Below, piece by piece: positions 15,902-30,849 of a DNA stretch of 64,000 bases (position 1 is its first letter; the number at the start of each line of letters is the position of its first letter). The notes beneath the pieces are model-generated. The model did no database searches. It had not been told where the DNA came from and saw nothing but the letters and a program-made list of their open reading frames with translations. The DNA lies in IMG/VR virus record IMGVR_UViG_3300033158_000302; one strand, written 5' to 3'. Position numbers and translations under genes: made by a program. This stretch comes from an uncultured virus (IMG/VR IMGVR_UViG_3300033158_000302). Lineage: Duplodnaviria > Heunggongvirae > Uroviricota > Caudoviricetes.

Positions 15902-18900
15902 GTGACTATTCAGTGCCGCGGCTGGAAAACGGCCACCAACTCGCACGGCTCCGCCACCTCGGTCGCGACCAGCTACGCGAGCATGAACGGCGGGACGGCC
16001 CCGCAAGCCGGTGACCTGATCGTCTGCGTGCTGCTGGTAACCGCCGCATCAGAAACGATCACCAAGTCGGCGGGTACCGGCACCTGGACGATCCCCGCCT
16101 CCACCAGCAACGCCGCCACCCAGCCGTTCACCTCAACGGTCGCCTACTCGCAGATGGCGGCCGGGGACACCGCCCCCACCTTCGCGTTCGCGTCCGCGTC
16201 CTACTCCTACATGCTGTTCTCCCTGTACTCCGACGCCGGCGGCAGCGTCACCTTCGACACCCAGGCCACCGTCAAAGTCGACACGACCGGGGCGACCAGC
16301 CACACCCCCAACACGGCGTCCGCGTCCACCGCCGCGGACGGCGCGATCGTCTGTAACGCCGCCCGGTACCAGACATCCGGGGCTTCAGCGATCACCGTCC
16401 CCACCCCGTGCTCGGGATATTCGGCGGTGTACTCGTCCGGCGGCATCGGCGGATATGCGGGCGCATCCGGCTATTACGCGAACTCGTGCAGCGCCTACAT
16501 CAAAAAACCGGTCGGCTCCGGCACCATAACCCCCGGCGCGGAATCATTCAACGAAACCGTCGCCAACAACGCCTACCTGGTGCTGGTCAAGGAAACCCTC
16601 CCGGAAACCTCCCCCGGCCTGGAAACATACGGGTTCCCGATCAGCGGGCCTGGCGCTGGCGACACGATCAACTCGGTCACCGTCTCGGTCACCGAACATC
16701 AGTCGAACGCCGCCCAGCAGCCCTGCTCGATCCAGTTGTGGGACGGGACCAGCGCCCAGATCGGTACCACCCAGACCGGCACCGCATCCACATCCACGTC
16801 GAATGTGAGCACGGCCACCTGGACCGGGGTCACCTACAGCCAGCTTGCAACGTTGCGGGTCCGGGTGTTCGGCACCGCCCTGGCCGGGTCCGGGTATGTC
16901 GAATCCGTCGACGGCGTGTCCGTCGTCGTCAACTACACCCCGGCCTCCGGCGGCGCCACAACGGTCACCCCGGGCTGCCCGGCCGGGGCTGGCACGGCGC
17001 CCGCACCCACCATCGCGACCGCTAAAACCGTCACCCCGGGCTGCGCAGCCGGAACCGGCGCCGCGGCAGCGCCCACGGCAGCGACCGGCAAAACAGCGAC
17101 CCCGGGCTGCCCGGCCGGGACCGGCAGCGCCCCGGCGCCCACCCTGACCACCGCCGCATCGGTCAGCGCCCCGTGCCCCGCCGGGACGGGGACCGCGAGC
17201 CCGGCAACAGCGGTGCCGGGCAGGACAGCGGTCCCCGGCTGCCCGGCCGGAACCGGCACTGCCCCGGCACCCACCGTGGCCACGCACGCCTCGGTCAGTG
17301 CCCCGCAAGCCACCGGGACCGGCAGCGCACCAGCCCCGGCCCGTGCGGTCACCGTGAACGCCGGGGCCGCCACCGGCGCCGGCACCGCCAGCGGCCCGAA
17401 AATCGTCGCCTACCGGGTCTACCAGTCCGGCGGCGGCGGGGCAGCCACCCAGGCGATGGCCGCCACCACCGCCGGCACCACCCTGATCGCCACCTCGACC
17501 AGCGCCAACGTGGTCGGCACCTGCACGGCAACCGACGGCACCCACACCTACACACTGTCCCAGGCGGTTTACACTGCCGGGCACGGCGGCGGCTACACCG
17601 GCGTGTACTTCCTGCCGAACTGCCCGGCGGGGCTGACCAGCGTCACCGTCGCCGGCGCCCAAACCGTGGGTTTCTATGAGGTCGGCGGCCTCGATCTGGT
17701 CACCCCGGTCGCCGGGGTCACCACCGGCGGCAGCGCCTCTACCACCTCGTTTTCGTGCGCGAGCGCGGCCACCGGCCCGAACCAGTTCTCCGTGTTCATG
17801 ATGTGCTACAGCGCATCCAACGGGGGAACCGCACGCACCACCGGCCTATCGGGCGACTTCATCACCTCCTGGTATGCGCAGGAGGCATACCGGATCGGCA
17901 CCACCGCCCCCTCAGGAACACTGTCCGGCACCGGCAGCTATGACTGCGCGATGGTGGCGTTCAACCCGGCCGGCACCACCGCCGGGGCCACTTGGGCCGG
18001 TATCCAGTTCGTCGCCAAACGCGGCGCCGCGAAAGTCACGGCCGCCGCCGCCAGCCTGCCGCTCAACCCGAACGGCACCATCGCCGCCGGCAACACCGCA
18101 TTCGCCTCGATCCACTTCGGCGCCTACGACATCGCCGGGGTCAAAGACACCGGCGGCAACGTCTGGCATGTCGACACCCGGTACGGTGGCGGCGCCATCT
18201 GCCACGCCTACCTCACCACCGCGCTCACCGCCGCCGACACGGTCACCGCGGTGCTGACCGGCGCCGCCACCGGCACCATCGAACTGCTGGAGTTCTCCGG
18301 CGTCAGCCAGTACGCGGCGCTCGATAACGACGCCCGCGGCTGGGCGACCGCCACCGCCACCAACATCACGCCCGGCACGTTCAACGGCACCACCGCCCCC
18401 AACATGCTGGTGCTCACGCACGGGGTCAGCTCCGCCGACATCAGCACCACCGTCACCTGGACGCCGCCGCCCGGCTGGATTGAGGAAACCACCGGCCTGT
18501 CTCCCGGCAACGTCACCGACTGCGCCTGGACGATCGCCTCTGTCGGCACCGGCCAGTTCTTCTCCCCGAAGTGGACGCAAGGCGCCGCGATCGTCATGAC
18601 CGGCATCACCTTGTGTTTCCTGCCGAAACAGGGGGTCACGCAGGCCAAGCAGACCCCCGCCACGGCCGGGGTGTACCGGGGGCCGTGCGGCATCTACGCC
18701 CAGGACGAGAAAGGATCCACCGCCGGCGGTGCCGCATCCGGGATCCTCGCCTACGAAAACTGGCTCGGCCACCACATCCAGTACCCGCTCGACTACATCG
18801 GCGACGCCCCTGCGAGCTGGTCCGACTTCGAAAACGGCATCCTCGGCCAGCCCATCGCCGGCTACACGTACCTGTCAAGCTGGGGCGGCACGTTCCTGTC

Positions 18901-21787
18901 CCGCTGGACCATGTGCCTGGCGCTGCCCGCCTGCGTCGGCATCTCCGCCGGGTCCGGCGGCGCCACCTGGGCCGCCGAGGCCGCCGGAACCAACGACGCG
19001 CACTGGACCGCGCTCGGCAACAACCTCATCGCCTGGGGATTCGGCAACGCCAACATCCGGCTCGGCCGTGAATGGAACGGCAACTGGTATCAGTGGTCAC
19101 CCGCCCTGACCGGTGACAGCGCCGCGAACTACATCGCCGGATACCAGCACATTGTCACCCTGCTGCGCAACTTGACCGGCGCCCATTTCACGTTCATGTG
19201 GAACCCGATCGAAGGCCAGGGCAGCATCGGCGCCGACGCGCAAACCTACTACCCCGGTGATGCCTACACCGACCAGATCGGCCTCGACGTCTACGACTGG
19301 GTCTACACCAACCAGACCAGCCCCCCGTACGGGTACCGGTCCGAAACAGACCGGCGGAACTGTTTCACCACCGCCGAAACCGCCACCGACGGCAACAACT
19401 CCTGGGTTCAGTTCGCCCGCAAGCACGGCAAACCACTCGCCTACCCCGAATGGGGCCTGGTGCAATGGCTGTCCGGCGGTTACAACGGCGGCGGCGACAA
19501 CCCCATCTTCATCAGCCAGATGCAGGAACTGGTCAGCTACTCGTTCCTGGAAGCATTCTGGGAAGACTCCGGCGCCGGCCTGTTCGACACCGACGGCGCC
19601 GCCTGCCGCACCGCAAACATCGAACGCCCCGACAACGCCAGGACCACATTCCTGACCTTGCAGGGCGCGGCATTCACCGCCGCCGGCGCCGGGGACGCCG
19701 AAGGCGCCGGCACCGCCCCGCCGTCGGCACCGGCCGCCGCCGCCACACCCAGCGCCCCGCAAGCATCCGGGACCGGCACCGCACCCGCCCCGACCATCGT
19801 CACCTCGTGTTCCCCGGCCCCGGCCTGCCCGGCCGGCACCGGCACCGCACCGGAACCGTCCCTGACGACTACCGCTGCCGTCAGCGCCCCGCAAGCGGCC
19901 GGGACCGGTACCGCACCGTCACCGTCGACCGCTGTCACCGTCAGTGCGCCCTGCCCGGCTGGGACCGGTGCCGCCAGCCCGGCAGCAGCCGCGACCGCTA
20001 AAGCAGCGACCGCACCGTGCCCCGCCGGGACCGGCACCGCCAGCCCGCCGGTGCCCGCGAGCGCCGCTGCCGTCAGCGTCGCCTGCCCGGCCGGGACCGG
20101 TACCGCACCGTCCGCGACGACCGCGACCGCTAAAACGGTCACCCCGCCATGCCCCGGCGGGGCCGGTGTAGCGAGCCCGGCGACCGCGGCCAGCGGCGTG
20201 GCCGCCCCGCAAGCGTCCGGTTCCGGGACCGCCAGCGCGGCCAGCATCACCACCGCGGCGGCACCGGCCGCGCCGCAAGCCACCGGAACCGGCACCGCCA
20301 GCCCGGCGACCGCCGCCAGCATCGCCACCATCACCGCGCCGCAAACTGCCGGGACAGGGACCGCCCCCGCCGCCAGCGCCGCGAGCGCCGCTGCCCCGGC
20401 CGCACCGCAAGCCGCGGGGACAGGGGCTGCCCCCGCACCCGGCATCAGCACCACCAGCAGCGGGCAAGCCTCCCCGCCGGCCGCCGCCGGCACCGGCACC
20501 AGCCCGCCGCCGGCGCTGACCACCACGGCCGCCGTGGCCGCCGGGGCTGCATCAGGCACAGGATCAGCACCCCAACCGGTCACCGGCACCGGGGCAGCAC
20601 CCGCTACCCCGGCCGGTGCGGCGACCGGTGCCGCCCCGTCCTCGGCAGGCACCGGCGCCGCACACCCCGCGCCACCCTGCCCGGCCGGGACCGGTACCGC
20701 ACCCGCCCCAACGATAACCACCGCCTGCACCCCCGCCGCGCCCGCCGCTGCCGGCACCGGAACAGCACCCCCACCCGCGCTGACCGCCACCGCAGCGGTC
20801 AGCGCCCCGCAAGCGATCGGCACCGGGACAGCCCCGGCAGCATCAGCCTCGACCATCGCACAGGGGCAGGCCAGCGCCGGGGCAGCCACCGGCACCGGGA
20901 CAGCCCCGGCCGTGACCGCCGCAGCGGCGTACAGTGCAACTGCGGGACTGGCTTCCGGAACCGGAACTACACCGCCCGCTACGACGGCGATCGCCGTGTC
21001 CCGGAACGCCGGCCCGTCCACCGGCACCGGCACCGCCCCGCCCGCCAGCATCACCACCACGGTCAGCGCCCTCGCCGGCCTGGCCGCCGGAACAGGCACC
21101 AGCCCGCCACCCGATACGGCCCGCACCGGCACCGCCAGCCCGGCCGCCGCCGCCGGAACCGGCACCGCGCCGCCCAGCTCGGCCTCCACCGTCCCCGTCA
21201 CCAGCGTCACCCCGGCATGCCCAGCCGGGACCGGTACCGCACCCGCGCCCGGCCTGGCCGCGAGCGCATCGGTCAGCGCCGGGCCAGCTACCGGGCAAGG
21301 CACCAGCCCGCACGCCACCGGCACCGGATACGCCGCCACCAGCGCCCAGCCCAATGTGGCCACCGGAACCGGCACCAGCCCGCCACCGTCAATCACCGCC
21401 AGCACCTCAGTGCATCCGCCCGCCGCCGCCGGAACCGGCACCAGCCCCCCACCAGTGGGGCAAGGCGCCCGCATCGCCACCCCGGCATGCCCCACCGGCC
21501 TCGGCACCGCGCCCGTCGCCGCGCTCGCCGCCGCCGCACAGGTGCAGGCGCTGGCCGCGCTCGGCCTCGGGACCGCCCCCGCCCCCGCAATCACCGCGCT
21601 AGGGTCAATTTCGTTGCTGTCGGGCCTGGCCGCCGGCGCACCCCACGGCCAATGGAGTACCGGGCCACCCCGAACGCAATGGTCCGCAGGCGCCCCGCAC
21701 ATCCGCTGGGCGACCGGGCCACCGCACAGCAAATGGGCAGCCGCTGGCCCGCACACACGCTGGACAGCCAGCTCACCCCATGGGTGA
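15902..21787 (+). CDS. Giant fibre/appendage protein with ~22-aa repeats and an internal GH26 glycoside hydrolase domain
   Basis: Repeats xVTPGCPAGTGTAPAP; GH26 motifs RLGREWNGNWY, YPGDAY.D.IGLDVYD, GKPLAYPEWG. Confidence 0.85.
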   Translation: MTIQCRGWKTATNSHGSATSVATSYASMNGGTAPQAGDLIVCVLLVTAASETITKSAGTGTWTIPASTSNAATQPFTSTVAYSQMAAGDTAPTFAFASASYSYMLFSLYSDAGGSVTFDTQATVKVDTTGATSHTPNTASASTAADGAIVCNAARYQTSGASAITVPTPCSGYSAVYSSGGIGGYAGASGYYANSCSAYIKKPVGSGTITPGAESFNETVANNAYLVLVKETLPETSPGLETYGFPISGPGAGDTINSVTVSVTEHQSNAAQQPCSIQLWDGTSAQIGTTQTGTASTSTSNVSTATWTGVTYSQLATLRVRVFGTALAGSGYVESVDGVSVVVNYTPASGGATTVTPGCPAGAGTAPAPTIATAKTVTPGCAAGTGAAAAPTAATGKTATPGCPAGTGSAPAPTLTTAASVSAPCPAGTGTASPATAVPGRTAVPGCPAGTGTAPAPTVATHASVSAPQATGTGSAPAPARAVTVNAGAATGAGTASGPKIVAYRVYQSGGGGAATQAMAATTAGTTLIATSTSANVVGTCTATDGTHTYTLSQAVYTAGHGGGYTGVYFLPNCPAGLTSVTVAGAQTVGFYEVGGLDLVTPVAGVTTGGSASTTSFSCASAATGPNQFSVFMMCYSASNGGTARTTGLSGDFITSWYAQEAYRIGTTAPSGTLSGTGSYDCAMVAFNPAGTTAGATWAGIQFVAKRGAAKVTAAAASLPLNPNGTIAAGNTAFASIHFGAYDIAGVKDTGGNVWHVDTRYGGGAICHAYLTTALTAADTVTAVLTGAATGTIELLEFSGVSQYAALDNDARGWATATATNITPGTFNGTTAPNMLVLTHGVSSADISTTVTWTPPPGWIEETTGLSPGNVTDCAWTIASVGTGQFFSPKWTQGAAIVMTGITLCFLPKQGVTQAKQTPATAGVYRGPCGIYAQDEKGSTAGGAASGILAYENWLGHHIQYPLDYIGDAPASWSDFENGILGQPIAGYTYLSSWGGTFLSRWTMCLALPACVGISAGSGGATWAAEAAGTNDAHWTALGNNLIAWGFGNANIRLGREWNGNWYQWSPALTGDSAANYIAGYQHIVTLLRNLTGAHFTFMWNPIEGQGSIGADAQTYYPGDAYTDQIGLDVYDWVYTNQTSPPYGYRSETDRRNCFTTAETATDGNNSWVQFARKHGKPLAYPEWGLVQWLSGGYNGGGDNPIFISQMQELVSYSFLEAFWEDSGAGLFDTDGAACRTANIERPDNARTTFLTLQGAAFTAAGAGDAEGAGTAPPSAPAAAATPSAPQASGTGTAPAPTIVTSCSPAPACPAGTGTAPEPSLTTTAAVSAPQAAGTGTAPSPSTAVTVSAPCPAGTGAASPAAAATAKAATAPCPAGTGTASPPVPASAAAVSVACPAGTGTAPSATTATAKTVTPPCPGGAGVASPATAASGVAAPQASGSGTASAASITTAAAPAAPQATGTGTASPATAASIATITAPQTAGTGTAPAASAASAAAPAAPQAAGTGAAPAPGISTTSSGQASPPAAAGTGTSPPPALTTTAAVAAGAASGTGSAPQPVTGTGAAPATPAGAATGAAPSSAGTGAAHPAPPCPAGTGTAPAPTITTACTPAAPAAAGTGTAPPPALTATAAVSAPQAIGTGTAPAASASTIAQGQASAGAATGTGTAPAVTAAAAYSATAGLASGTGTTPPATTAIAVSRNAGPSTGTGTAPPASITTTVSALAGLAAGTGTSPPPDTARTGTASPAAAAGTGTAPPSSASTVPVTSVTPACPAGTGTAPAPGLAASASVSAGPATGQGTSPHATGTGYAATSAQPNVATGTGTSPPPSITASTSVHPPAAAGTGTSPPPVGQGARIATPACPTGLGTAPVAALAAAAQVQALAALGLGTAPAPAITALGSISLLSGLAAGAPHGQWSTGPPRTQWSAGAPHIRWATGPPHSKWAAAGPHTRWTASSPHG
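16960..17400 (+). repeat. First block of ~66-nt/22-aa degenerate repeats
   Basis: TVTPGCPAGAGTAPAPTIATAK-type units. Confidence 0.8.
19690..21600 (+). repeat. Second, longer block of ~22-aa degenerate repeats
   Basis: Recurrent (C/Q)(P/A)AGTGTA(P/S)P units. Confidence 0.85.
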
Positions 21788-22971: not shown

Positions 22972-25653
22972 ATGACCACCGCCTACCAGGACGCCGACTA
23001 CCGGCGTTACATCGCCCCCGCCTGCATGCCCCGGCGCCGCCGCTGGCGCACCCCCGGCGCCCTCGCGCGAGCACTGGAGCCGCGCACCCGCACCAGCCGC
23101 GCCCTGGCGCTCATCGACCGCGAACTAGCCGCCCTCGCCGACCACAAGAGCGGCGCCGACGCGCTCGCGATCGCGATGCCACCCCAGGAAGGAAAGCCGG
23201 TCTATGCTGGGGCAATGATCCTTATGGGGGACGGAAGCCGCAAACGCCTCAGAGACATAAAGGCTGGCGATACGGTCATAAGCCACCGGGGTGTCCCGTG
23301 CGTAGTCGAGGCGGTTCACGAGCAGGGTGACCTGCCGATCGTGAAAATTACGACTCACGCCGGCCGGGTGATCCGAGCGGCGGCTAGCCATCCGTTCCTG
23401 ACGCCTGACGGCTGGGTTGAGGCAGGCAAGCTGACCCCGGGTAACGGCGGTGGCCAGGGCACTGTCCGGGTTGATGGCGATGTGCTGGCCGTTGTCCGCG
23501 CTCCGCGACCAGAGTCCGATACTGCGCTGACCGCCGAGGCAGCCCGGCTGCTCGGCTATTTCATCGGCGACGGCAACACAACCGTCAGCACGCCCGGCCC
23601 GCGTGGCGGCTCGTTCAACGCGGCCATCAAGTGTGACGATGACACGGAGGGCGCTGACATCGAAGCATGCGCGGCTGCGCTCGGCTTCGGTATCACCGGA
23701 CGACCGGCCCCGCCGGTCGCAGAGGGTCGCTGGCCGCGCGCAGCGGCACTGTCCTTGTCCGGTGGTGTCCGTCCATGGCTTCGCCTGCATGGTCTAGCCG
23801 GCCGCACCTCCTACACCAAGCGAGTCCCCGCGGCGATCTTTACCTCACATCCCGAGATCGCCGCAGAGTTTATCGGTGCCTACTTTGCCTGCGACGGAAC
23901 CGTATCCCGGCGTGGCGGTGCCCGGCCCGACTGCCGCCTGGAGTTCAATTCGGTTAGCCGGGACCTGCTCGCTGACGTGCAGCACCTGCTCGTTCGCCTC
24001 GGGATCGCCTCGACGTTGCGACCGAAGTACACCACCTATGACGGCAAGCCCTACACCTCGTGGCGGCTGCTGATGCGGCGTCAGGATGACGCAGCCAGGT
24101 TCCGGCAGATCGTCCCGGTCCACCACCGCAAGGCGATCGTGCTCGGGGCGTGGGACTTGCACCGCACTGAGTTCGACACCGCATACATAGCCGACCCGGT
24201 TGTGGCGGTCGAACGGGAAGACCCAGCCGAATGCCGGTGCCTGACCGTCGCCGAGGACCACACATTCACCGTCGAAGACGTCGTGGTGCACAACAGCGAA
24301 CGGGTCTCCCGCCGGTTCCCCGCCTGGCTGCTCGCCCACAACCCGGCGCTGCGGATCGGCATCGTGTCCTACGAACTGGAAATGGCGGTCCGCTGGGGCC
24401 GGCAAATCAAACGGGACCTAGCCGCCGCCGACCCCCGCATCCTGAACGTCACCATCACCGAGGACTCCAAAGCCGCCGGGCGATGGGACACCCCCCAAGG
24501 CGGCGGCGTCTACTGTGTCGGCATCGGCGGCGCCCTCACCGGCCGGCCACTGGACGTGCTGCTCATCGACGACCCGGTCAAAGGCCGCGAGGAAGCCGAA
24601 TCGGAAACCTACCGGCGCCGCGCCTGGGACTGGTGGGAAAACGTCGCGATCTCCCGCCTCGCAACCGGCGGCATTGTGTGCCTAATTATGACTCGTTGGC
24701 ACGAAGATGACCTGGCCGGGCAGATCCTCGCCAAACCCGGCCCGCTGCAATGGCGGATCCTGACCCTGCCCGCGATCGCCGGCGAGAACGACCCGCTGCG
24801 CCGTGACCCCGGCGACGAGTTCCCCTCCGTCCGGGACCGGCCACCCGGCTACTTTTACCGGCTGCAAGCCACCCTGTCCCCGTATGTGTGGGCGTCGATC
24901 TACCAGCAGACCCCCACCGCCGCGGCCGGGAACTTCTTCCGCCGCGTCTCCTTCCGGTACTGGCGCACCGTCACCGGCCAGCCGCACCCCGCCACCCTGC
25001 TGGCCAGCTACCGGTACGCCGGCGTCTACATCGACCTGGACGGGCAGCAAACCGACCTCGCCGATGACGCCGTATGGCGGTTCGCCACCATCGACGTCGC
25101 CGCCAGCGAGAAAACCTCCGCCGACTGGACCGTCGTCGCCGTCTGGGCGATCAGCCGGCAAGGCGACCTGATCCTGCTCGACCGTGCCCGCGGCCACGCC
25201 GAAATGAGTGATCATTTCGCGATGGTCAAACCGCTGCGCGACCGCTGGCACTTCGACATCTGCTACGTGGAGCACCAGTTCTACTCCAAAACGCTGGTCA
25301 CCGACGCCCGCGAAGCCGGCATCCCCGTCGCCGAAGTCACCGCCGACAAAGACAAAATCACCCGCGCCATCCCCGCCGCCGGAAGGCTGCACGCCGGGAA
25401 AGTATGGTGGCCCGCCGACGCGCCCTGGCTGGCCGAATGGGAAAACGAGATCGCCTCATTCCCCCGCGCCGCCCACGACGACCAGGTCGACGTGTTCGCC
25501 TACGCCGCCCGCATCGCCGCCGCCCACTGGACCCCGGCACCACCACCGCCGCGCCCCCCGAAACTGCCCAGAGACCTCACCGAAATCGAGAATGCCTACG
25601 GGGCAGCCACCGGCAACGGCAACCAGGACGTCATGACGATGCCGCTCGGGTAA
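22972..25653 (+). CDS. terL: Terminase large subunit containing an intein
   Basis: Walker A MPPQEGK|S, Walker B LLIDDPVK, MTRWHEDDLAG, RNase H-like IDVA...D and HDDQVD. Confidence 0.95.
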   Translation: MTTAYQDADYRRYIAPACMPRRRRWRTPGALARALEPRTRTSRALALIDRELAALADHKSGADALAIAMPPQEGKPVYAGAMILMGDGSRKRLRDIKAGDTVISHRGVPCVVEAVHEQGDLPIVKITTHAGRVIRAAASHPFLTPDGWVEAGKLTPGNGGGQGTVRVDGDVLAVVRAPRPESDTALTAEAARLLGYFIGDGNTTVSTPGPRGGSFNAAIKCDDDTEGADIEACAAALGFGITGRPAPPVAEGRWPRAAALSLSGGVRPWLRLHGLAGRTSYTKRVPAAIFTSHPEIAAEFIGAYFACDGTVSRRGGARPDCRLEFNSVSRDLLADVQHLLVRLGIASTLRPKYTTYDGKPYTSWRLLMRRQDDAARFRQIVPVHHRKAIVLGAWDLHRTEFDTAYIADPVVAVEREDPAECRCLTVAEDHTFTVEDVVVHNSERVSRRFPAWLLAHNPALRIGIVSYELEMAVRWGRQIKRDLAAADPRILNVTITEDSKAAGRWDTPQGGGVYCVGIGGALTGRPLDVLLIDDPVKGREEAESETYRRRAWDWWENVAISRLATGGIVCLIMTRWHEDDLAGQILAKPGPLQWRILTLPAIAGENDPLRRDPGDEFPSVRDRPPGYFYRLQATLSPYVWASIYQQTPTAAAGNFFRRVSFRYWRTVTGQPHPATLLASYRYAGVYIDLDGQQTDLADDAVWRFATIDVAASEKTSADWTVVAVWAISRQGDLILLDRARGHAEMSDHFAMVKPLRDRWHFDICYVEHQFYSKTLVTDAREAGIPVAEVTADKDKITRAIPAAGRLHAGKVWWPADAPWLAEWENEIASFPRAAHDDQVDVFAYAARIAAAHWTPAPPPPRPPKLPRDLTEIENAYGAATGNGNQDVMTMPLG
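23197..24294 (+). mobile_element. 366-aa intein with LAGLIDADG homing endonuclease, Pro at position 1
   Basis: Begins PVYAGAMILMGDGS, block B ASHPFLT, LLGYFIGDG and FIGAYFACDG, block F CRCLTV, ends VVHN|S; removal restores GKS. Confidence 0.92.
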
Positions 25654-25979
25654 TACCGGGTCCGCCGCCCGGTACGCGGCAACCTCCGCGCGGCGCGCCC
25701 GCCGCTGGGCGTGCCGGCCACGCGGCCCCCACTCACACGCCGGCTGCAGCGCCTCCCACGCCGGCACGTACACGTCCCGCAACGGCCCCACCGCATCAGC
25801 TTCCACACCCTGCTGACGGTAGGCCCGGATATGCCGACCGGCCAGGCACGCGAGATACCGGGCCTCTTCCGGGGACAGCTCCACCCACATTCGGCATGCT
25901 CCCGCTCAGGTCCCGGCGCGGCCCCACCGCACAGCATCCACCCGCCCGCCGCACTCCCGCAGCCAGAAAGAACAGAACC

Positions 25980-26297
25980 ATGACCGGCCGCACCGAACTA
26001 CCCGGCGTCGGGAAGGCAACCACCTGCGAGGCAGCCGCCTACCACCGGCCCAAGCCGCTCCGGTACGTGTGGCACCACGTGCTGCCCGAAGCATGCGACG
26101 GCCCGACAACACCCGCCAACCTGGTTTCGCTCTGTGATGGATGCCATTACTCGTGCCACGTACTGATGTGGTGGCTCGCGAACGGCGGCCTCCCGCCCGG
26201 GCTCAAAGGCACCCGGAAACAGCTCGCGATCGCCTTCGACGGCTACACCCAGGCCCAAGACAACGGCACCATCGGCAAAATCCCCAAAGAAGCGTAA
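25980..26297 (+). CDS. HNH endonuclease (packaging-associated type)
   Basis: WHHVLP...G.....NLVSLCDGCH...H. Confidence 0.8.
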   Translation: MTGRTELPGVGKATTCEAAAYHRPKPLRYVWHHVLPEACDGPTTPANLVSLCDGCHYSCHVLMWWLANGGLPPGLKGTRKQLAIAFDGYTQAQDNGTIGKIPKEA

Positions 26298-26312
26298 ACC
26301 GGGGGTTTACAC

Positions 26313-26960
26313 TCAGGGACGGGGCAGATTCAGCCGGGCGGACTCGCCCCACCTGGCCAGGGCAGCCTCATCGTAGGCCCGGGCCGCGTCCTCTTCATCC
26401 GCGAACAGGCCCAGACTTCGGCCGGCGATGCGAGCCCGCCACCGGTTCGCAGTGTGCGGTGTCACGCCACGGAAACGCGACGGCCGCAACAGGGCACGGG
26501 CGGCCTTCTGGCGGGCGCTGGCCTGGACGTGATCGCAGGTCAGGCAGATCCGGTCCCCCATGCGCCAGCGACGCAGGACCAGGTTGCCGGGCACGAGCGC
26601 ATGCCGCTGCGGGCAATGGGTCTTGGCGGCGTTGATGGCGGCGACATTCGTGGCGCCGCGAAGCATGTTCTCCCGGTGCGTGACCGGTTCCAGGTGGCCG
26701 GGGTAGCAGCAGTCGGTCCAGATGCACCCCCAGTCTCTAACGTGGTCGAGTTCCCGTTTAGGAGGAATCGGGCCGACCAGCATCGTAAAGACAAGGCGGT
26801 GAACCCACCAGTCCTCGCCTTTCCAGGAGATTTGCCGGTATCCGTAGCGATTTGAGGGCTGGCCGTATAGATAGCGCCAGCAGCCACTTACCGGATCGAT
26901 CGTTACTCGCGCCCGGATGAGTTCAGGCAAATCAGCGAGGCACCAGATAGCCTCAGGCAT
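26313..26960 (-). CDS. HNH endonuclease with C-terminal AP2 domain (free-standing homing endonuclease)
   Basis: GCW, VHRL, ELDH...CCYPGHLEPVT..EN, THC..GH-like motif, SRFRGV...W.ARI...LG.F..EEDAARAYD; GGAGG RBS. Confidence 0.9.
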   Translation of the reverse strand: MPEAIWCLADLPELIRARVTIDPVSGCWRYLYGQPSNRYGYRQISWKGEDWWVHRLVFTMLVGPIPPKRELDHVRDWGCIWTDCCYPGHLEPVTHRENMLRGATNVAAINAAKTHCPQRHALVPGNLVLRRWRMGDRICLTCDHVQASARQKAARALLRPSRFRGVTPHTANRWRARIAGRSLGLFADEEDAARAYDEAALARWGESARLNLPRP

Positions 26961-27056
26961 GCGACCTCCGTACTAGGTCGTTGATGCCCGAGCCGCGCCA
27001 ACGGCCCGGGCATCACTACGTTCTGACCTGCGAGTTTACCCGAAGGGGGGTGATGG

Positions 27057-30000
27057 ATGATGCCGTCTGGTATGCACGTCGCCGCCTCCAATGGCCGCGG
27101 TTCCGCGCCTACCTCCCCGACTGGAAGACCTGATGTACTCTGGGGCCTTCCTGGTCAGGGCGGCCTGCTAACTGAGTGGGCTGAGACGGTGCCGTTAACC
27201 GGATTTGACGTGGCCCGAGAGCGTTCGGACTTATGGGCGGATGCGCCGCGACGCGCGGCTTACCGCGGTGCTGTCCGCCTACTTCCTGCCGCTGCTGCGT
27301 GCGACCTGGGCGGTTGACCCGGACGGCATTGACCGGGCTGAGGCTGTCGACCTGGTCGCATCGGATCTGGGCTTGCCGATCCTGGGGCAGAAAACCAAGC
27401 CGTCCGGCCCGGCGATCAGGGGGTTCAAATGGCATGACCATGCGCGGATTGCGCTGCTCAACCTCGTGTATGGGCATATGCCGTTCGAGGAATGGTTTGT
27501 GGAGCGGGATGGCCGCACGCATCTGGCTGGTATCGGGGAACGGCAGCCGCACACCATCGCGATCATCGACATCAACGATGACGGCACGGTCCGGCAGATC
27601 AGCCAGAACACCCAGAATGAGCCGGTCGCCGGGCGGAACTTGCTGTGGTATGTGAATCAGCGGGAGGGCGCTAACTGGGCCGGCGTCAGCATGCTGCGCT
27701 CGTGTTATACGCCATGGATCCTTAAACACGAAACAATGAGGGTCCACGCCACCAGCATCCGCCGGTTCGGGATGGGTGTGCCGTCCGTGTCCGCGCCGCC
27801 CGGCGGCACCCCCGGGCAGGTGCAGCAAGCCCAGCAGCTCGCCTCGCAAATGCGCGCCGGGGACACCGCCGGAGTCGGCCTGCCGTCGGGATTCCAGTAC
27901 GCGCTGACCGGCCTGACCGGGTCGGTGCCGGACGCGCTCGGGTTCCTGAAATACTGCAATCAGGAAATGACCACCAGCGCGCTCACCCAGCTCCTGGAAC
28001 TCGGCACCACCCAGACCGGCTCGCGCGCCGTCGGCGAGAACTTCCTCGACCTGTTCCTGCTGAGCCTGCAAGCATGCGCCGACGCGATCGGTGACACGGC
28101 CACCACCGGCCAGCCGGGCATGGCCGGCCTCGCCCGTGATCTGGTCGAATACAACTGGGGTGAAGGGGAACCGGTCCCCGCGATCCGGGCAACCGACGTC
28201 GGTGACCGGCACGAAATCACCGCCCTGTCCATTCAGCAGCTCATGGCGGGCGGCGCTATCCAGGCGGACCCGGCGCTGGAAGCCTACGTCCGCAACGCCT
28301 GGGGGCTGCCTGCCCGCAGCATCCCGTGGACCCCGCCGCCGCTCAAATCGGGGCAAACCCAGCCCGGCGGTCCTGGCCCGGCAGGGGGCGGCAGCGCACC
28401 GGCGAACCCGTCCCCTGCCGCACCATCACCGGCTGCCCCGGCGAACCCGCCCGCGCCCGCGCGGGGGCCTGTTCCACGTGAAACAGCACCGGCCGCCGCC
28501 GCCGACATGCGCCGCGCCCTCACCCCGACCGAAGCCGCCGCCGGCATGGACCCGCTCGCGATCGCCAGCGAATCAGCGTCCGCGGTGGACGCGCTGATGG
28601 CCCACTGGGAACCTGTCATGCGCGCCCAACGGCACGACCTGTCCGAACAGGTGACCGCCGCCGTCGATGACGGCAACCTCGCGCACCTGCCCGCCATCCG
28701 CCCCGACACCACCACCGCGACCCGGCTGCTCGGCGACGCCATGACCGCCATGGCGTGGACCGGTGCACAGCGGATGATCCGGGAAGCCGCCGCCCAGCAC
28801 GTCATCATCAACCCCTCAACCGTCGTCATCGACGACACGAAACTCCGGCAGGTCGCCGCCGCCCGCGCCGGGCTGATCGCCGCCCGGTACGCCGCCGAGG
28901 CCGCCAAAGGCGCCCTGTCCGTCGTCACCGCCAGCGCCGGCACCGACGCCGGCGACTACGTGTCGGTGCTGCTCGCCGGGCTGTCCCTGACCCCACTCGA
29001 AGACGACTTCCGCGCCGCGATGAACGCCGCCCAGAACACCGGCCGGGTCGCCGCCATCACCGCCGGCATCAACGCCGGGCACGACCCGGTCTGCTACGCG
29101 AGCGAAATCCTCGACCGCAACACCTGCCCGCCGTGTGCCAGCATCGACGGGCACCAGTTCGCCACCCCCGCCGAAGCTGAAGCCGCCTACGCCGGCGGCG
29201 CCTACGTGCGCTGCGAAGGACGGCTCCGCTGCCGCGGCACCATCATCACCCAATGGGAAGGCGGGGACAGTCCCCCTTTCGGCCTAGCCGCGGCCTGGGA
29301 TGAAGCCAGGCATCCGCGCGGCGTGCACGGCGAATGGGTGACGCTCGGCTACGACCAGCTCGATAAGCATCTGGCCGCCACCTTCCACCCCGCCCAGCTT
29401 GAGGCGGACCGGGCCAGGCACCCCCGGTCCGGGTACATGGTCGAAGTCGGCAAGGAACGCCGCGTCCACCAGCCGCCCGCATCCGCCGTGCACGACAGTA
29501 AGTCCCTCGGCCCCGAAGGCCCCGCCGTGTTCGACGTCATCGACCACGGCACCCTCGCCCAGGGTGAGAACCTGCTCGTCTACCCCAAGCACGCCGGCAC
29601 CGAACCGATCAAGCACGTGTACCGGGGGATGTCGGCCGCCGAATGGGACCAGGCCCAGGCACGCGGCCACATCGCCTCCGATGAGCGCGGCGCCATCAGC
29701 CCCCTGGAAGGCACCAACGCTGCCGCCGACCCCCGTGACGCGGTGTCCTATCTGCCCGGCTCCGGGGAAGGCTACGTCGCGAAAATCGCGGTCAACCCGG
29801 CTGACAAGTGGTTCACGATCCATGCTGACGACTACCTGCGGACAAGGAAGCCGATCCCCCTGGACCGGGTACAGAAAGTAGCCAGATTCCGGCGGACCGC
29901 AGACGGCCAGCTTGAAATCCCCCGCGACGCGCTAGCACCGGCCGCGGCCTGGGATGAAGCCAAGCATCCCCGCGGCTGGCATGGCCGGTTCGGGCACGGC

Positions 30001-30849
30001 ACCAAACCCGGCGGCGGCAAAACCAGCAGCCCCGGCGGGATCAGCGACGCCGCGTTCGAGGCCCGGCAGAAAATGGTCGCCAAAGAGATCGCCGCCGCCG
30101 CCGCGAAAAACACCGCGGTCACCGAGACCCTCGATGGGCACGGCGAAATCTACAGCCCAGCCCGCGCGAAAATCCACAACGAAATCGTCACCGCGATCAT
30201 GACAAAGGCCGCCACCGTCCCCGACCAGGGCAAGGCGATCCTCGGCGGCGGGCTGCCCGCATCGGGGAAAACCAGCGCAATGCGCGCCATCCCCGGCATG
30301 AACATGGACGACTACCTGTGGGTCGCCCAGGACGACATTCAGGAAGAACTCGCCAACCGCGGACTGATCCCCAAAGTGGACGGCCTATCCCCCATGGAAT
30401 GCGCCCCGCTGGTGGTCGAAGAATCCCGGCACGTCGCCAACATGGTCCTGGCCCGCTGCGCCGCCGAACACAAAAACGTGATCATCGAGCTGACGATGAA
30501 CCCGTCCGACAACATCGAGCAGCGCGTCGCCATCCTGCACCAAGAGGGATACACCGACGTCGAAGGCGTCTACATCGACATCCCGCTGGACACCTCCATC
30601 ACCCGGGCACTGAACCGGTACCGGACCGGCCTGGACGCCTGGCGGCACGGGCAAGGCAACGGCGCCCGCCGCATCTCCCCCGCCGACCTCACCGAAACGT
30701 GGGGGACCAGCGACCCGGACGTGTCACTGAACGAGGAAAACTTCACCCGCAACGAGCAAATCTTCGACGGCTGGTACAAGTTCGACAACTCCCAATACGG
30801 GCGCCCGCCGATGCTGGTCGACTCATCTATGCCGGCGCCGCCGTCATGA
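27057..30849 (+). CDS. Portal (DUF935-like)-MuF-cargo polyprotein; 27057-27194 joined to 27202-30849 by a putative 7-nt bypass
   Basis: Joined reading gives ETVP|DLTWPESVRTYGRMRRD; portal motifs SMLR..Y.PW..K, RFGMGVP, GSRAVG; MuF D.NTC..C...DG...C.G..RCRG; C-terminal zeta kinase. Confidence 0.85.
28500..29270 (+). other. MuF (phage Mu gpF-like minor head) domain
   Basis: AQNTGR, YASEILDRNTCPPCASIDG, CEGRLRCRG. Confidence 0.8.
30040..30849 (+). other. Zeta-toxin-like P-loop kinase domain
   Basis: R..IH..IV, GGLPASGKT, DDI.EEL, EES, NVII, GY..V...YID.P...S..RA..R, R.I, W..FDNS. Confidence 0.8.

Follow-up and report, generated by a model that had tools for sequence, protein, structure and literature searches.

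The portal locus

The DNA considered here, referred to below as the window, is the whole 64,000-nucleotide stretch of the uncultured virus IMGVR_UViG_3300033158_000302 (Caudoviricetes), which comes from a wetland metagenome assembly. Its portal gene is interrupted by seven nucleotides (nt), TTAACCG, that make up a candidate site of translational bypass, i.e., a coding gap over which ribosomes may hop. Read directly, positions 27183-27218 are ...GAG ACG GTG CCG TTA A CCG GAT TTG ACG TGG CCC GAG... (Table 1). The gap follows a CCG codon, opens with the rare leucine codon TTA and ends in a second CCG that is identical to the first and is followed by GAT TTG ACG TGG. Its length is frame-shifting. 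The open reading frame (ORF) starting at ATG 27057 (frame 0) ends at a TGA at 27315-17 after 86 amino acids (aa; 27057..27317), and the portal frame, in the +1 register, has a TAA at 27196-98 and is open from 27199 to 30849, with 1216 intact codons downstream of the gap. The coordinates given in an initial annotation of the window (those of both CCG codons, of TAA and of the frame-0 ORF among them) all proved correct when re-read from the sequence.

The ORF lists begin the long portal ORF at TTG 27205 and end it at 30849 (1214 aa). Its residues 8-367 matched the Portal_Mu profile (PF06074) with an E value of 5e-37 (128 bits, against a cut-off of 23.9), in agreement with the earlier identification as a portal, and residues 1007-1161 matched Zeta_toxin (E 1.2e-10), locating a Zeta_toxin/AAA_33 domain near the C-terminus. 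A MuF part had also been proposed; no MuF domain was matched by Pfam at E<=0.01. No Shine-Dalgarno (SD) sequence was found ahead of TTG 27205, as had already been pointed out. An SD-like motif does precede ATG 27057 and ATG 27060, and the portal relatives begin at the homologous M(M/V)PSGM position.

Table 1. Features of the window around the portal gene, and TTA-led inserts (in square brackets, between the candidate take-off codon and the next codon read) in the portal genes of seven lineages. L numbers denote loci.
Feature	Position	Strand	Details
HNH-AP2 homing-endonuclease-like gene, 215 aa	26313..26960	-	Pfam HNH_3 (E 2e-6) and AP2 (E 1.1e-4); directly upstream of the portal gene, transcribed away from it
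SD-like GAAGGGGGGTGA	27042..27053	+	Ahead of portal starts ATG 27057 and ATG 27060; read from sequence
Putative portal N-terminal segment, frame 0, 46 codons	27057..27194	+	By translation; homologous to the contiguous N-termini of L004, L006, L026, L185 and L186
Synonymously recoded tract, first ~61 portal codons	27057..27246	+	Rich in A/T-ending codons
Candidate take-off codon CCG	27192-94	+	In frame with ATG 27057, as is TTA 27195-97
7-nt coding gap TTAACCG	27195..27201	+	In-frame rare UUA 27195-97; A 27198; +1-frame TAA 27196-98; landing CCG 27199-201
Portal gene remainder, +1 frame	27202..30849	+	Portal domain and C-terminal cargo including a Zeta-toxin/AAA_33-like kinase domain; open frame, Pfam
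Window insert			CCG[TTAACCG]GAT; frame-broken
L010/L011 inserts			GGT[TTAACCAGGT]ACT; TCC[TTAGTCC]GAC; frame-broken
L016/L017/L053/L245 inserts			GGC[TTAACCAGGT]ACC; CTC[TT]ATC (re-pairing on CTT); CGA[TTACGC]ATG; frame-broken
L031 inserts			TGG[TTAGCCGTCCTGG]GAA; CTC[TT]ATC; CGA[TTACCGT]ATG; frame-broken
L234 inserts (7 and 8 nt)	L234 754-1063		TGG[TTACTGG]GAG; CGA[TTACCCGG]ATG; frame-broken
L213 insert, 9 nt			GGT[TTACCGGGC]ACA; in-frame
L081 insert, 6 nt			GAT[TTAGGC]CCT; in-frame

The insert and the upstream reading frame

A defective phage with a broken portal gene, or an artefactual insert, might be suspected in a metagenomic assembly, in which contigs drop rare variants. We have found the insert, however, in Logan contigs of two samples. 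Those of run X1 (depth 17.5), which may be the run behind the window itself, span 26200-27449 and those of run X2 (depth 6.3), from another sample and study of the same year and habitat, span 26936-28200, in both cases with 0 differences and 0 gaps relative to the window; the contigs of runs X3 and X4 give no cover at the junction. Confirmation in raw reads had been asked for in the initial annotation, and what these data provide is the presence of the 7 nt at the level of contigs, where minor alleles are hidden. In addition, within each of two other insert-bearing groups (L010/L011 and L016/L017/L053/L245) the members come from separate assemblies of different samples. One would not expect a random 7-nt indel to open with TTA and close with the take-off codon, and a broken gene would be hard to reconcile with 1216 intact downstream codons and with purifying selection. 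The 7 nt are real DNA, not an assembly slip, and we consider it very improbable that the gene is broken or the insert an artefact.

The segment upstream of the gap has clear counterparts in other portals. A megablast search of window positions 26900-28400 against a phage collection gave no match, and the closest relative in IMG/VR (L004) shares 62% identity and has MRVAPGSVPTSPVGHPDVLWGLPGQGGLLTEWAETVPDLTWPESVRTYGRMRRD as a single frame. In the closest relatives the 7 nt are missing and the sequence is ...WAETVPDLTWPES...: the junction is ETVPDLTWPES in L004 and L006, ESVPDLTWPES in L026, ETVPDLMWPEQ in L186 and a close variant in L185. Compared to these five loci the window has exactly 7 extra bases, and the gap is absent from every relative aligned here. 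Skipping 27195-27201 would give ETVP|DLTWPESVRTYGRMRRD, as initially proposed, and this is exactly what L004 and L006 encode uninterrupted. Even the distant portals of Gordonia phage Sekhmet and Arthrobacter phage Elesar (~37% identity) have 28-33 residues ahead of the conserved EL.WP motif.

The substitutions tell the same. Over the 22 codons before the gap, window and L004 differ by 14 synonymous and 0 nonsynonymous changes (counted by eye), and over the 52 aligned codons of the reconstructed N-terminus by 31 synonymous and 12 nonsynonymous ones; the proportion of nonsynonymous differences (pN) was 0.106 in the N-terminus vs. 0.198 in the gene body. Between L010 and L012 the reconstructed N-terminus had 27 synonymous and 4 nonsynonymous differences (pN 0.035 vs. 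0.056 in the body). The divergence of the 46-codon segment is mostly synonymous, and it would therefore be translated in frame 0 and constrained as protein. The reconstructed N-termini are under strong purifying selection, and the ORF from ATG 27057 is, judging from these alignments, the true portal N-terminus. Homologs with no conserved segment upstream of TWPES, which would have spoken against the initial proposal, are not what we found; the upstream segment is conserved. Gene callers that start the portal at the false TTG miss 46 codons, and annotation pipelines for high-GC phages would miss such genes likewise.

The portal might alternatively be made without this segment, from TTG 27205 or another internal start, the 46-codon ORF being a separate peptide or a relic and the 7 nt a tolerated frameshift. 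The choice of TTG 27205 by gene callers and a Portal_Mu match that begins at residue 8 of that ORF would be consistent with it. Besides, in L010 the unhopped frame ends in a TGA that overlaps a portal-frame TTG (TTGA) and could couple reinitiation. In the window, by contrast, frame 0 continues to 27317 and therefore there is no stop-start coupling, TTG 27205 is devoid of an SD, and the upstream segments are under strong purifying selection in the correct frames. In L016 and L031 the only start codon after the gaps is the Met of the conserved GRMRHD motif, again without an SD. An internal start would also leave unexplained the composition of the inserts described in the next section, with a TTA in 13/13 and a matched landing codon in 12/13. 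Overall, we regard it as an improbable alternative.

Recurrence of TTA-led inserts in portal genes

Portal relatives were gathered from metagenomes (27 loci), genomes (19 loci) and IMG/VR. The 128 usable loci formed 96 clusters at 95% identity that, together with L031, amount to 97 lineages, 95 of them with a visible 5' end. No insert was present in 88 of the 95, and the other seven carry 13 TTA-led inserts, all within the first ~60 codons, with lengths of 2, 6, 7, 8, 9, 10 and 13 nt and with up to three gaps within about 100 nt of one portal gene. The frame is broken in five lineages (the window, L010/L011, L016/L017/L053/L245, L031 and L234), and in the remaining two (L213 and L081) the insert is in-frame. 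None of the 19 prophage relatives found in genomes has a gap. They were found in Nonomuraea, Streptosporangium, Actinomadura, Spirillospora, Jiangellaceae and Jatrophihabitans, and the hosts are probably Streptosporangiales-like rather than Streptomyces.

All 13 inserts open with an in-frame TTA directly 3' of the take-off codon, and in 12 of them the landing codon, taken as the last three bases of the insert (or the overlapping CTT in the 2-nt inserts), matches the take-off codon in its first two bases and its amino acid. The pairs GGC/GGT, CTC/CTT and CGA/CGC/CGT are each normally read by one tRNA following wobble rules; a CGA/CGG pair is near-cognate only. Skipping the gaps leaves each of the five frame-broken N-termini free of stops and open up to the conserved YGRMR(H/R)D motif. 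Among the 89 contiguous lineages only L213 has an in-frame TTA in these codons. An insert after S-W-G is common to L010 and L016, although their portal bodies have diverged (proportion of synonymous differences, pS, 0.36) and the take-off codon varies between GGT and GGC, and it has therefore been retained through evolutionary time. We observed likewise that at the GR|M boundary (L016 ~3040, L031 ~955, L234 ~995) three lineages have TTA-led inserts of 6, 7 and 8 nt (CGA TTACGC, CGA TTACCGT and CGA TTACCCGG), in which the length changes and the TTA and a CGN landing codon are kept.

Chance cannot produce such a recurrent, TTA-led and codon-matched pattern. The initial annotation had predicted that close relatives would be contiguous at VP|DL or would carry other TTA-containing inserts with matched codons; both were found, the latter as 12 further TTA-led inserts in six other lineages, nearly all of them codon-matched. 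Generic scans of the window and all loci for in-frame TTA with frame changes (using the GC content of third codon positions, GC3, by phase or open-frame rules) were too noisy, with as many matches in antisense frames and for control triplets. We also considered the inserts as transposon footprints with a 3-bp duplication; these would lack the codon register and the wobble pairs GGC/GGT, CGA/CGC/CGT and CTC/CTT, and the idea was rejected.

A different decoding event at the same place would be a +1 frameshift, or four-base decoding, at UUA-A instead of a 7-nt hop, with a product ETVP-L-PDL... that has one or two extra residues. Hungry codons are well known as places of +1 shifting, and UUAA or UUAG follows the take-off codon in the window, both sites of L010, the first sites of L016 and L031 and the g7/8 site of the terminase gene of actinophage phiHau3, for which +1 shifting could not be excluded beforehand according to the sections of the paper dealing with it (PMC10732093). 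However, classical +1 shifts of the prfB or Ty type need a P-site tRNA that can re-pair in the +1 frame, and here the tRNA on CCG would be moved to the non-cognate CGU. With the 2-nt and 8-nt inserts, which displace the frame by +2, one +1 step is not enough to restore it; with the other frame-shifting inserts, of 7, 10 and 13 nt, it would place 2-4 additional residues in a conserved stretch. The matched landing codons (12/13) would also be left without a reason. In phiHau3 the junction of a hop was seen by mass spectrometry, and recoding was not reduced by a stop put into the +1 frame of the gap, as described in those same sections (PMC10732093). We consider this explanation slightly less probable still than an internal start. 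Four-base decoding of TTAA/TTAG as such was discarded: it fits some sites only and ignores the matched codons.

Codon usage and local context

TTA is nearly absent from the window: it was found once in 12,991 codons (36 plus-strand coding-type ORFs) and 0 times in the 1217-codon portal ORF. In three prophage-bearing genomes (G001-G003) the Leu tRNA anticodons tag, gag and cag were recovered, and neither taa nor the expected caa, which indicates that the search (the Rfam tRNA model on G001 only, and BLAST with one Leu tRNA on G001-G003) was incomplete. Hairpins abut the take-off codon in L010 (z score -2.05), L016 (-1.34) and phiHau3 g7/8 (-2.35). Another TTA, at position 1391 of L009 (TTAACCGGA, resembling the window), was examined as a bypass site and rejected as an ordinary Leu codon. 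The Leu in question belongs to a conserved G-S-L-T-G-R motif of an uninterrupted 551-aa ORF, situated upstream of the portal and called terminase from motif and position, and the codon is possibly tRNA-limited.

An HNH-AP2 endonuclease gene beside the interrupted portals

The gene directly upstream of the portal codes for an HNH-AP2 homing-endonuclease-like protein (Table 1), and homologs were found at the same place and in the same orientation in L010/L011, L016/L017/L053/L245, L031, L081 and L213. Those of L010/L011, the L016 type, L031 and L081 are 41-59% identical to one another, and that of L213 is a homolog of the window protein (46% identity over 147 aa). A hidden Markov model of the six endonucleases, searched against the 2636 ORFs of >=40 aa located up to 1.7 kb upstream of every portal, matched only those of the window, L010/11, L016/245, L031, L081 and L213, always on the minus strand and adjoining the portal start. 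Considering the 92 lineages with >=585 nt upstream, TTA-led inserts were present in 6/6 endonuclease-positive vs. 1/86 endonuclease-negative lineages; put the other way, the endonuclease gene stands beside the portal in 6/7 insert-bearing vs. 0/85 insert-free lineages. The Fisher test gives a p of about 1e-8 with lineages taken as independent; this treatment is too generous, since the endonucleases are of two types and may stem from 3-4 invasions.

At most of the other loci the genes for terminase and portal lie side by side, and Pfam detected no HNH or AP2 domain in 92 ORFs taken from the terminase-portal gaps of 11 intact loci. In L194, whose portal is intact, there is an HNH_3 gene on the same strand at a distance of one gene. 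L237 has a portal N-terminus nearly as in L213, with neither the 9-nt TTA insert nor the endonuclease, and a GC3 drop of -0.15 over the first 51 codons; it could be an ex-carrier or a natural target. The endonuclease segment of L016 (2331-2882) replaces a stretch of similar length in L012 (2398-2894), a relative devoid of the endonuclease, so that it is not a simple insertion, and homology resumes at the portal start. We also looked at the flanks of 33 high-GC HNH-AP2 loci (of 80 fetched): matched TTA sites occurred at 1.01/kb near and 0.72/kb far from the gene, an uninformative difference, and the endonuclease link is therefore not extended to other genes.

The portal 5' ends next to these endonucleases have in addition been recoded synonymously. 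In the window the tract has a GC3 of 0.66 and the gene body one of 0.85, and L004, L006 and L026 have 0.92-0.94 over the codons of the tract. Over the first 52-61 portal codons L010 (0.75), L016 (0.62) and L031 (0.67) are similarly low, compared to 0.86-0.96 for the same codons in 11 intact relatives and 0.85-0.91 for the gene bodies of the window, L010 and L016. The median difference between N-terminus and body in the 89 contiguous lineages was -0.02. A map of third bases shows that the tract ends abruptly near codon 55-60, most strikingly in L081. Synonymous divergence within it is saturated (pS 0.73-0.82 vs. 0.29-0.50 in the body) and pN is low. The intact control pair L012 and L024 had no synonymous excess (0.34 vs. 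0.33), and two other intact pairs had a smaller one (0.56 vs. 0.33 for L004 and L006, 0.61 vs. 0.44 for L012 and L028). Co-conversion from a low-GC donor was ruled out, the recoded tracts being 94-98% identical in protein to L012, i.e., of the local clade.

Some further genes of the window deserve mention. The large terminase gene (22972-25653, plus strand; Terminase_6N/6C) contains an intein with a LAGLIDADG endonuclease (LAGLIDADG_3, E 1.8e-18; Intein_splicing). Between it and the HNH-AP2 gene there is a second, weak HNH-like ORF (25404-26297, plus strand; PF01844, E 7.9e-4, below the cut-off), and there are therefore three selfish-element-like genes in a row in the terminase-portal region. 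A 1961-aa ORF at 15902-21787 (plus strand) has a weak match to glycosyl hydrolase family 26 (E 1.7e-5) and may be a protein of the tail or of host recognition. Two copies of the motif AAAWDEA(R/K)HPRG.HG are found in the C-terminal extension of the portal, at 29287 and 29941 (residues 696 and 914 counted from 27202), the second standing before the Zeta-toxin/AAA_33-like module.

A proposed mechanism and its weighing

The gap is recurrent, TTA-led and codon-matched, lies in constrained coding sequence and co-occurs with the endonuclease gene and the recoded tract. What is new here is this endonuclease gene beside the insert-bearing portals together with their synonymously recoded 5' ends. We propose that translation would start at ATG 27057/27060 and read 46 codons. 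The extreme rarity of UUA, the codon then in the A site, would make the ribosome stall while peptidyl-tRNA-Pro occupies CCG 27192-94 in the P site. This tRNA would unpair, the mRNA would slide 7 nt, and re-pairing with the identical CCG 27199-201 would allow decoding to resume at GAT 27202. The predicted product is a full-length portal with the native ...ETVP-DLTWPES... junction, and the junction peptide to be expected is ETVPDLTWPESVR. This hop from CCG to CCG over a hungry UUA was the core of the initial annotation. On the comparative side it has received strong support (contiguous homologs, recurrent inserts, selection and the anatomy shared with phiHau3). The initial interpretation as a whole, to which belonged a coupling of virion assembly to host development, is partly supported. 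From the sequences compared, the site is a real and well-supported candidate for programmed translational bypass.

As for the reason of such an arrangement, the endonuclease may recognize the conserved 5' portal sequence of endonuclease-free phages. In a carrier the portal copy would be shielded by dense synonymous recoding together with spacers that alter the DNA and not the protein, the protein staying unchanged because ribosomes would hop over the spacers. In an essential gene the only inserts to survive would be those that can be hopped, i.e., UUA plus a cognate landing codon. More speculatively, inserts at several positions over ~100 nt would fit a bipartite, spacing-sensitive recognition by the HNH and AP2 modules. 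Taken as one explanation, bypass over the gap plus self-immunity of the endonuclease by recoding and hop-over spacers is the one that we find, on balance, probable. More tentatively, the endonuclease gene, the recoded first ~60 portal codons and the UUA-hop spacers might be a single mobile cassette of high-GC actinophages, in which bypass would have arisen on its own and for the reason that holds in T4 gene 60: no other route would put a cleavage-blocking spacer into a conserved essential gene and leave the protein as it is. If true, bypassing would be a general by-product of homing-endonuclease arms races, and gene ends flanked by endonucleases would be the place to look for more cases.

Several observations weigh against these proposals. 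Local RNA structure at the window site was not significant (z scores of -0.0 and -0.43) and there is only a weak SD-like GGUG upstream of the gap, and therefore the stimulators proposed for phiHau3 are not evident here. The in-frame TTA of L009 (1391-1393) is a conserved Leu of the upstream terminase. Related hosts can therefore decode UUA, and hopping, which would compete with decoding, may be inefficient. The 6-nt insert of L081 has no matching landing codon and would therefore be read as Leu-Gly or handled otherwise. L234 has two gaps, and no endonuclease was detected over the 850 nt upstream; the gaps may have outlived a lost endonuclease, as has been described for some relatives of gene 60, or L234 may be a counter-example (its GC3 drop is mild, 0.82 vs. 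0.92). Detection of the endonuclease covered <=1.7 kb upstream and HNH-AP2-like proteins, the lineages behind the association are not phylogenetically independent, and GC3 drops of -0.15 to -0.19 were seen in a few lineages devoid of the endonuclease as well. Finally, a gap-free allele coexisting with the window could be missed in Logan contigs, which hide minor variants.

The same UUA-stalled hop could serve a regulatory purpose, which is the published rationale for phiHau3 (the Smith/Antonov model, as presented in the parts of PMC10732093 concerned with it). Portal synthesis would then be confined to times when charged tRNA-Leu(UAA) is in short supply, so that assembly would follow the physiology of the host, and the endonuclease would be incidental. 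The avoidance of TTA in the rest of the phage, the two gaps of L234, where no endonuclease was detected nearby, and the presence of prophage relatives in sporulating Streptosporangiales such as Nonomuraea, Streptosporangium and Actinomadura would all suit a regulatory role. Such a role does not predict, however, the distribution of inserts with respect to the endonuclease (6/6 vs. 1/86), the recoded tract, several gaps in ~100 nt or the in-frame 6- and 9-nt versions, and the 19/19 gap-free prophage relatives in genomes also argue against it. Regulation could coexist with the immunity model, and as the explanation in place of it we judge it unlikely.

Comparison with known systems

To our knowledge only a handful of natural cases of translational bypass are on record, namely T4 gene 60 and its relatives, the yeast mitochondrial byps and three terminase genes with partial experimental support. 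The portal would be the second virion gene for bypass, with 13 sites in 7 lineages, and the hop lengths, graded from 2 to 13 nt, together with landing codons that vary naturally by wobble, would provide a ready-made mutational series on how ribosomes choose where to land. Short hops over hungry codons were reportedly obtained in Escherichia coli by Weiss in 1987 and by Gallant and Lindsley. There too, starvation for the A-site codon lets the peptidyl-tRNA leave its codon and pair again with a cognate one close by; those hops, however, were laboratory constructs or errors and not conserved features of natural genes.

Closest in layout is the phiHau3 terminase, for which Smith and colleagues reportedly described a UUA-mediated short bypass in 2013. 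The phiHau3 DNA, as we read it, has GGC[TTACTCCGGT]AAG and TCT[TTAACGGTCC]ACG, a layout identical to that of the portal sites. The available account (Antonov et al., 2023; PMC10732093) describes two 10-nt blocks in the phiHau3 large terminase gene and 7-nt blocks in two prophage terminases (StrepC.1 and S. catenulae), each after UUA, in 3/100 terminase genes. It also reports the full-length phiHau3 product in S. coelicolor, the hop junction peptide in E. coli after UUA was changed to UAA, and no loss of recoding with a +1-frame stop placed in the gap (PMC10732093). The portal sites share with this type an in-frame UUA after the take-off codon, a 7- or 10-nt block ending in a codon of the same tRNA, a junction contiguous in homologs, and their location in an essential virion-assembly gene of a high-GC actinophage. 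They differ in the gene affected (portal instead of terminase), in having up to three gaps in ~100 nt and lengths of 2-13 nt, in lying inside a recoded tract beside an HNH-AP2 endonuclease gene and, in the window, in the absence of a clear stem-loop, whereas a 5' stem-loop plus an internal SD have been proposed as the phiHau3 stimulators. The decoding mechanism would thus be of a known and partly tested kind, and the portal a new gene family for it. Our literature searches found no paper on UUA bypass in a portal gene (the supplements of PMC10732093 and of the bioRxiv preprint cited below were outside their scope) and none tying HNH-AP2 endonucleases to recoding.

A rare UUA is also found in the overlap of the gp50/gp51 primase genes of mycobacteriophage Bxb1, where the authors suspect frameshifting or bypass in the passages devoted to it (PMC12646305). 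That case is again an actinophage with a rare UUA at a frame change inside one functional protein. It differs in being a replication gene with an undefined mechanism, and the passages describing it mention neither a matched codon pair nor an endonuclease link.

Bonocora and colleagues are said to have placed, in 2011, the 50-nt bypass of T4 gene 60 within a MobA homing-endonuclease element. The gene 60 gap has been described as blocking self-nicking by MobA, which polymorphisms alone did not do, in the portions of the preprint that concern it (Manning and Atkins, 2022, bioRxiv 10.1101/2022.08.31.505936). As far as that account goes, in both systems an HNH homing endonuclease adjoins an essential gene, and every carrier of the endonuclease also has a recoded homologous region and an untranslated gap. 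In both, the protein is unchanged by the gap, the distribution is sporadic among close relatives, and one lineage keeps gaps after apparent loss of the endonuclease. On the other hand, the portal gaps are of 2-13 nt and not 50, the stall would be at a rare sense codon and not at a stop, and we identified no nascent-peptide or take-off stem-loop signal. The endonuclease has here an AP2 domain, the gene is not split into two ORFs by the element, and self-immunity is what the comparison would lead one to expect. The portal gap is not a member of the gene 60 family, and the resemblance is in logic only. This logic, in the form of an HNH-AP2 endonuclease and a recoded tract, would tie the UUA hops of actinophages to the immunity idea developed for MobA and gene 60, and offers a testable answer to the question of why bypass evolves.

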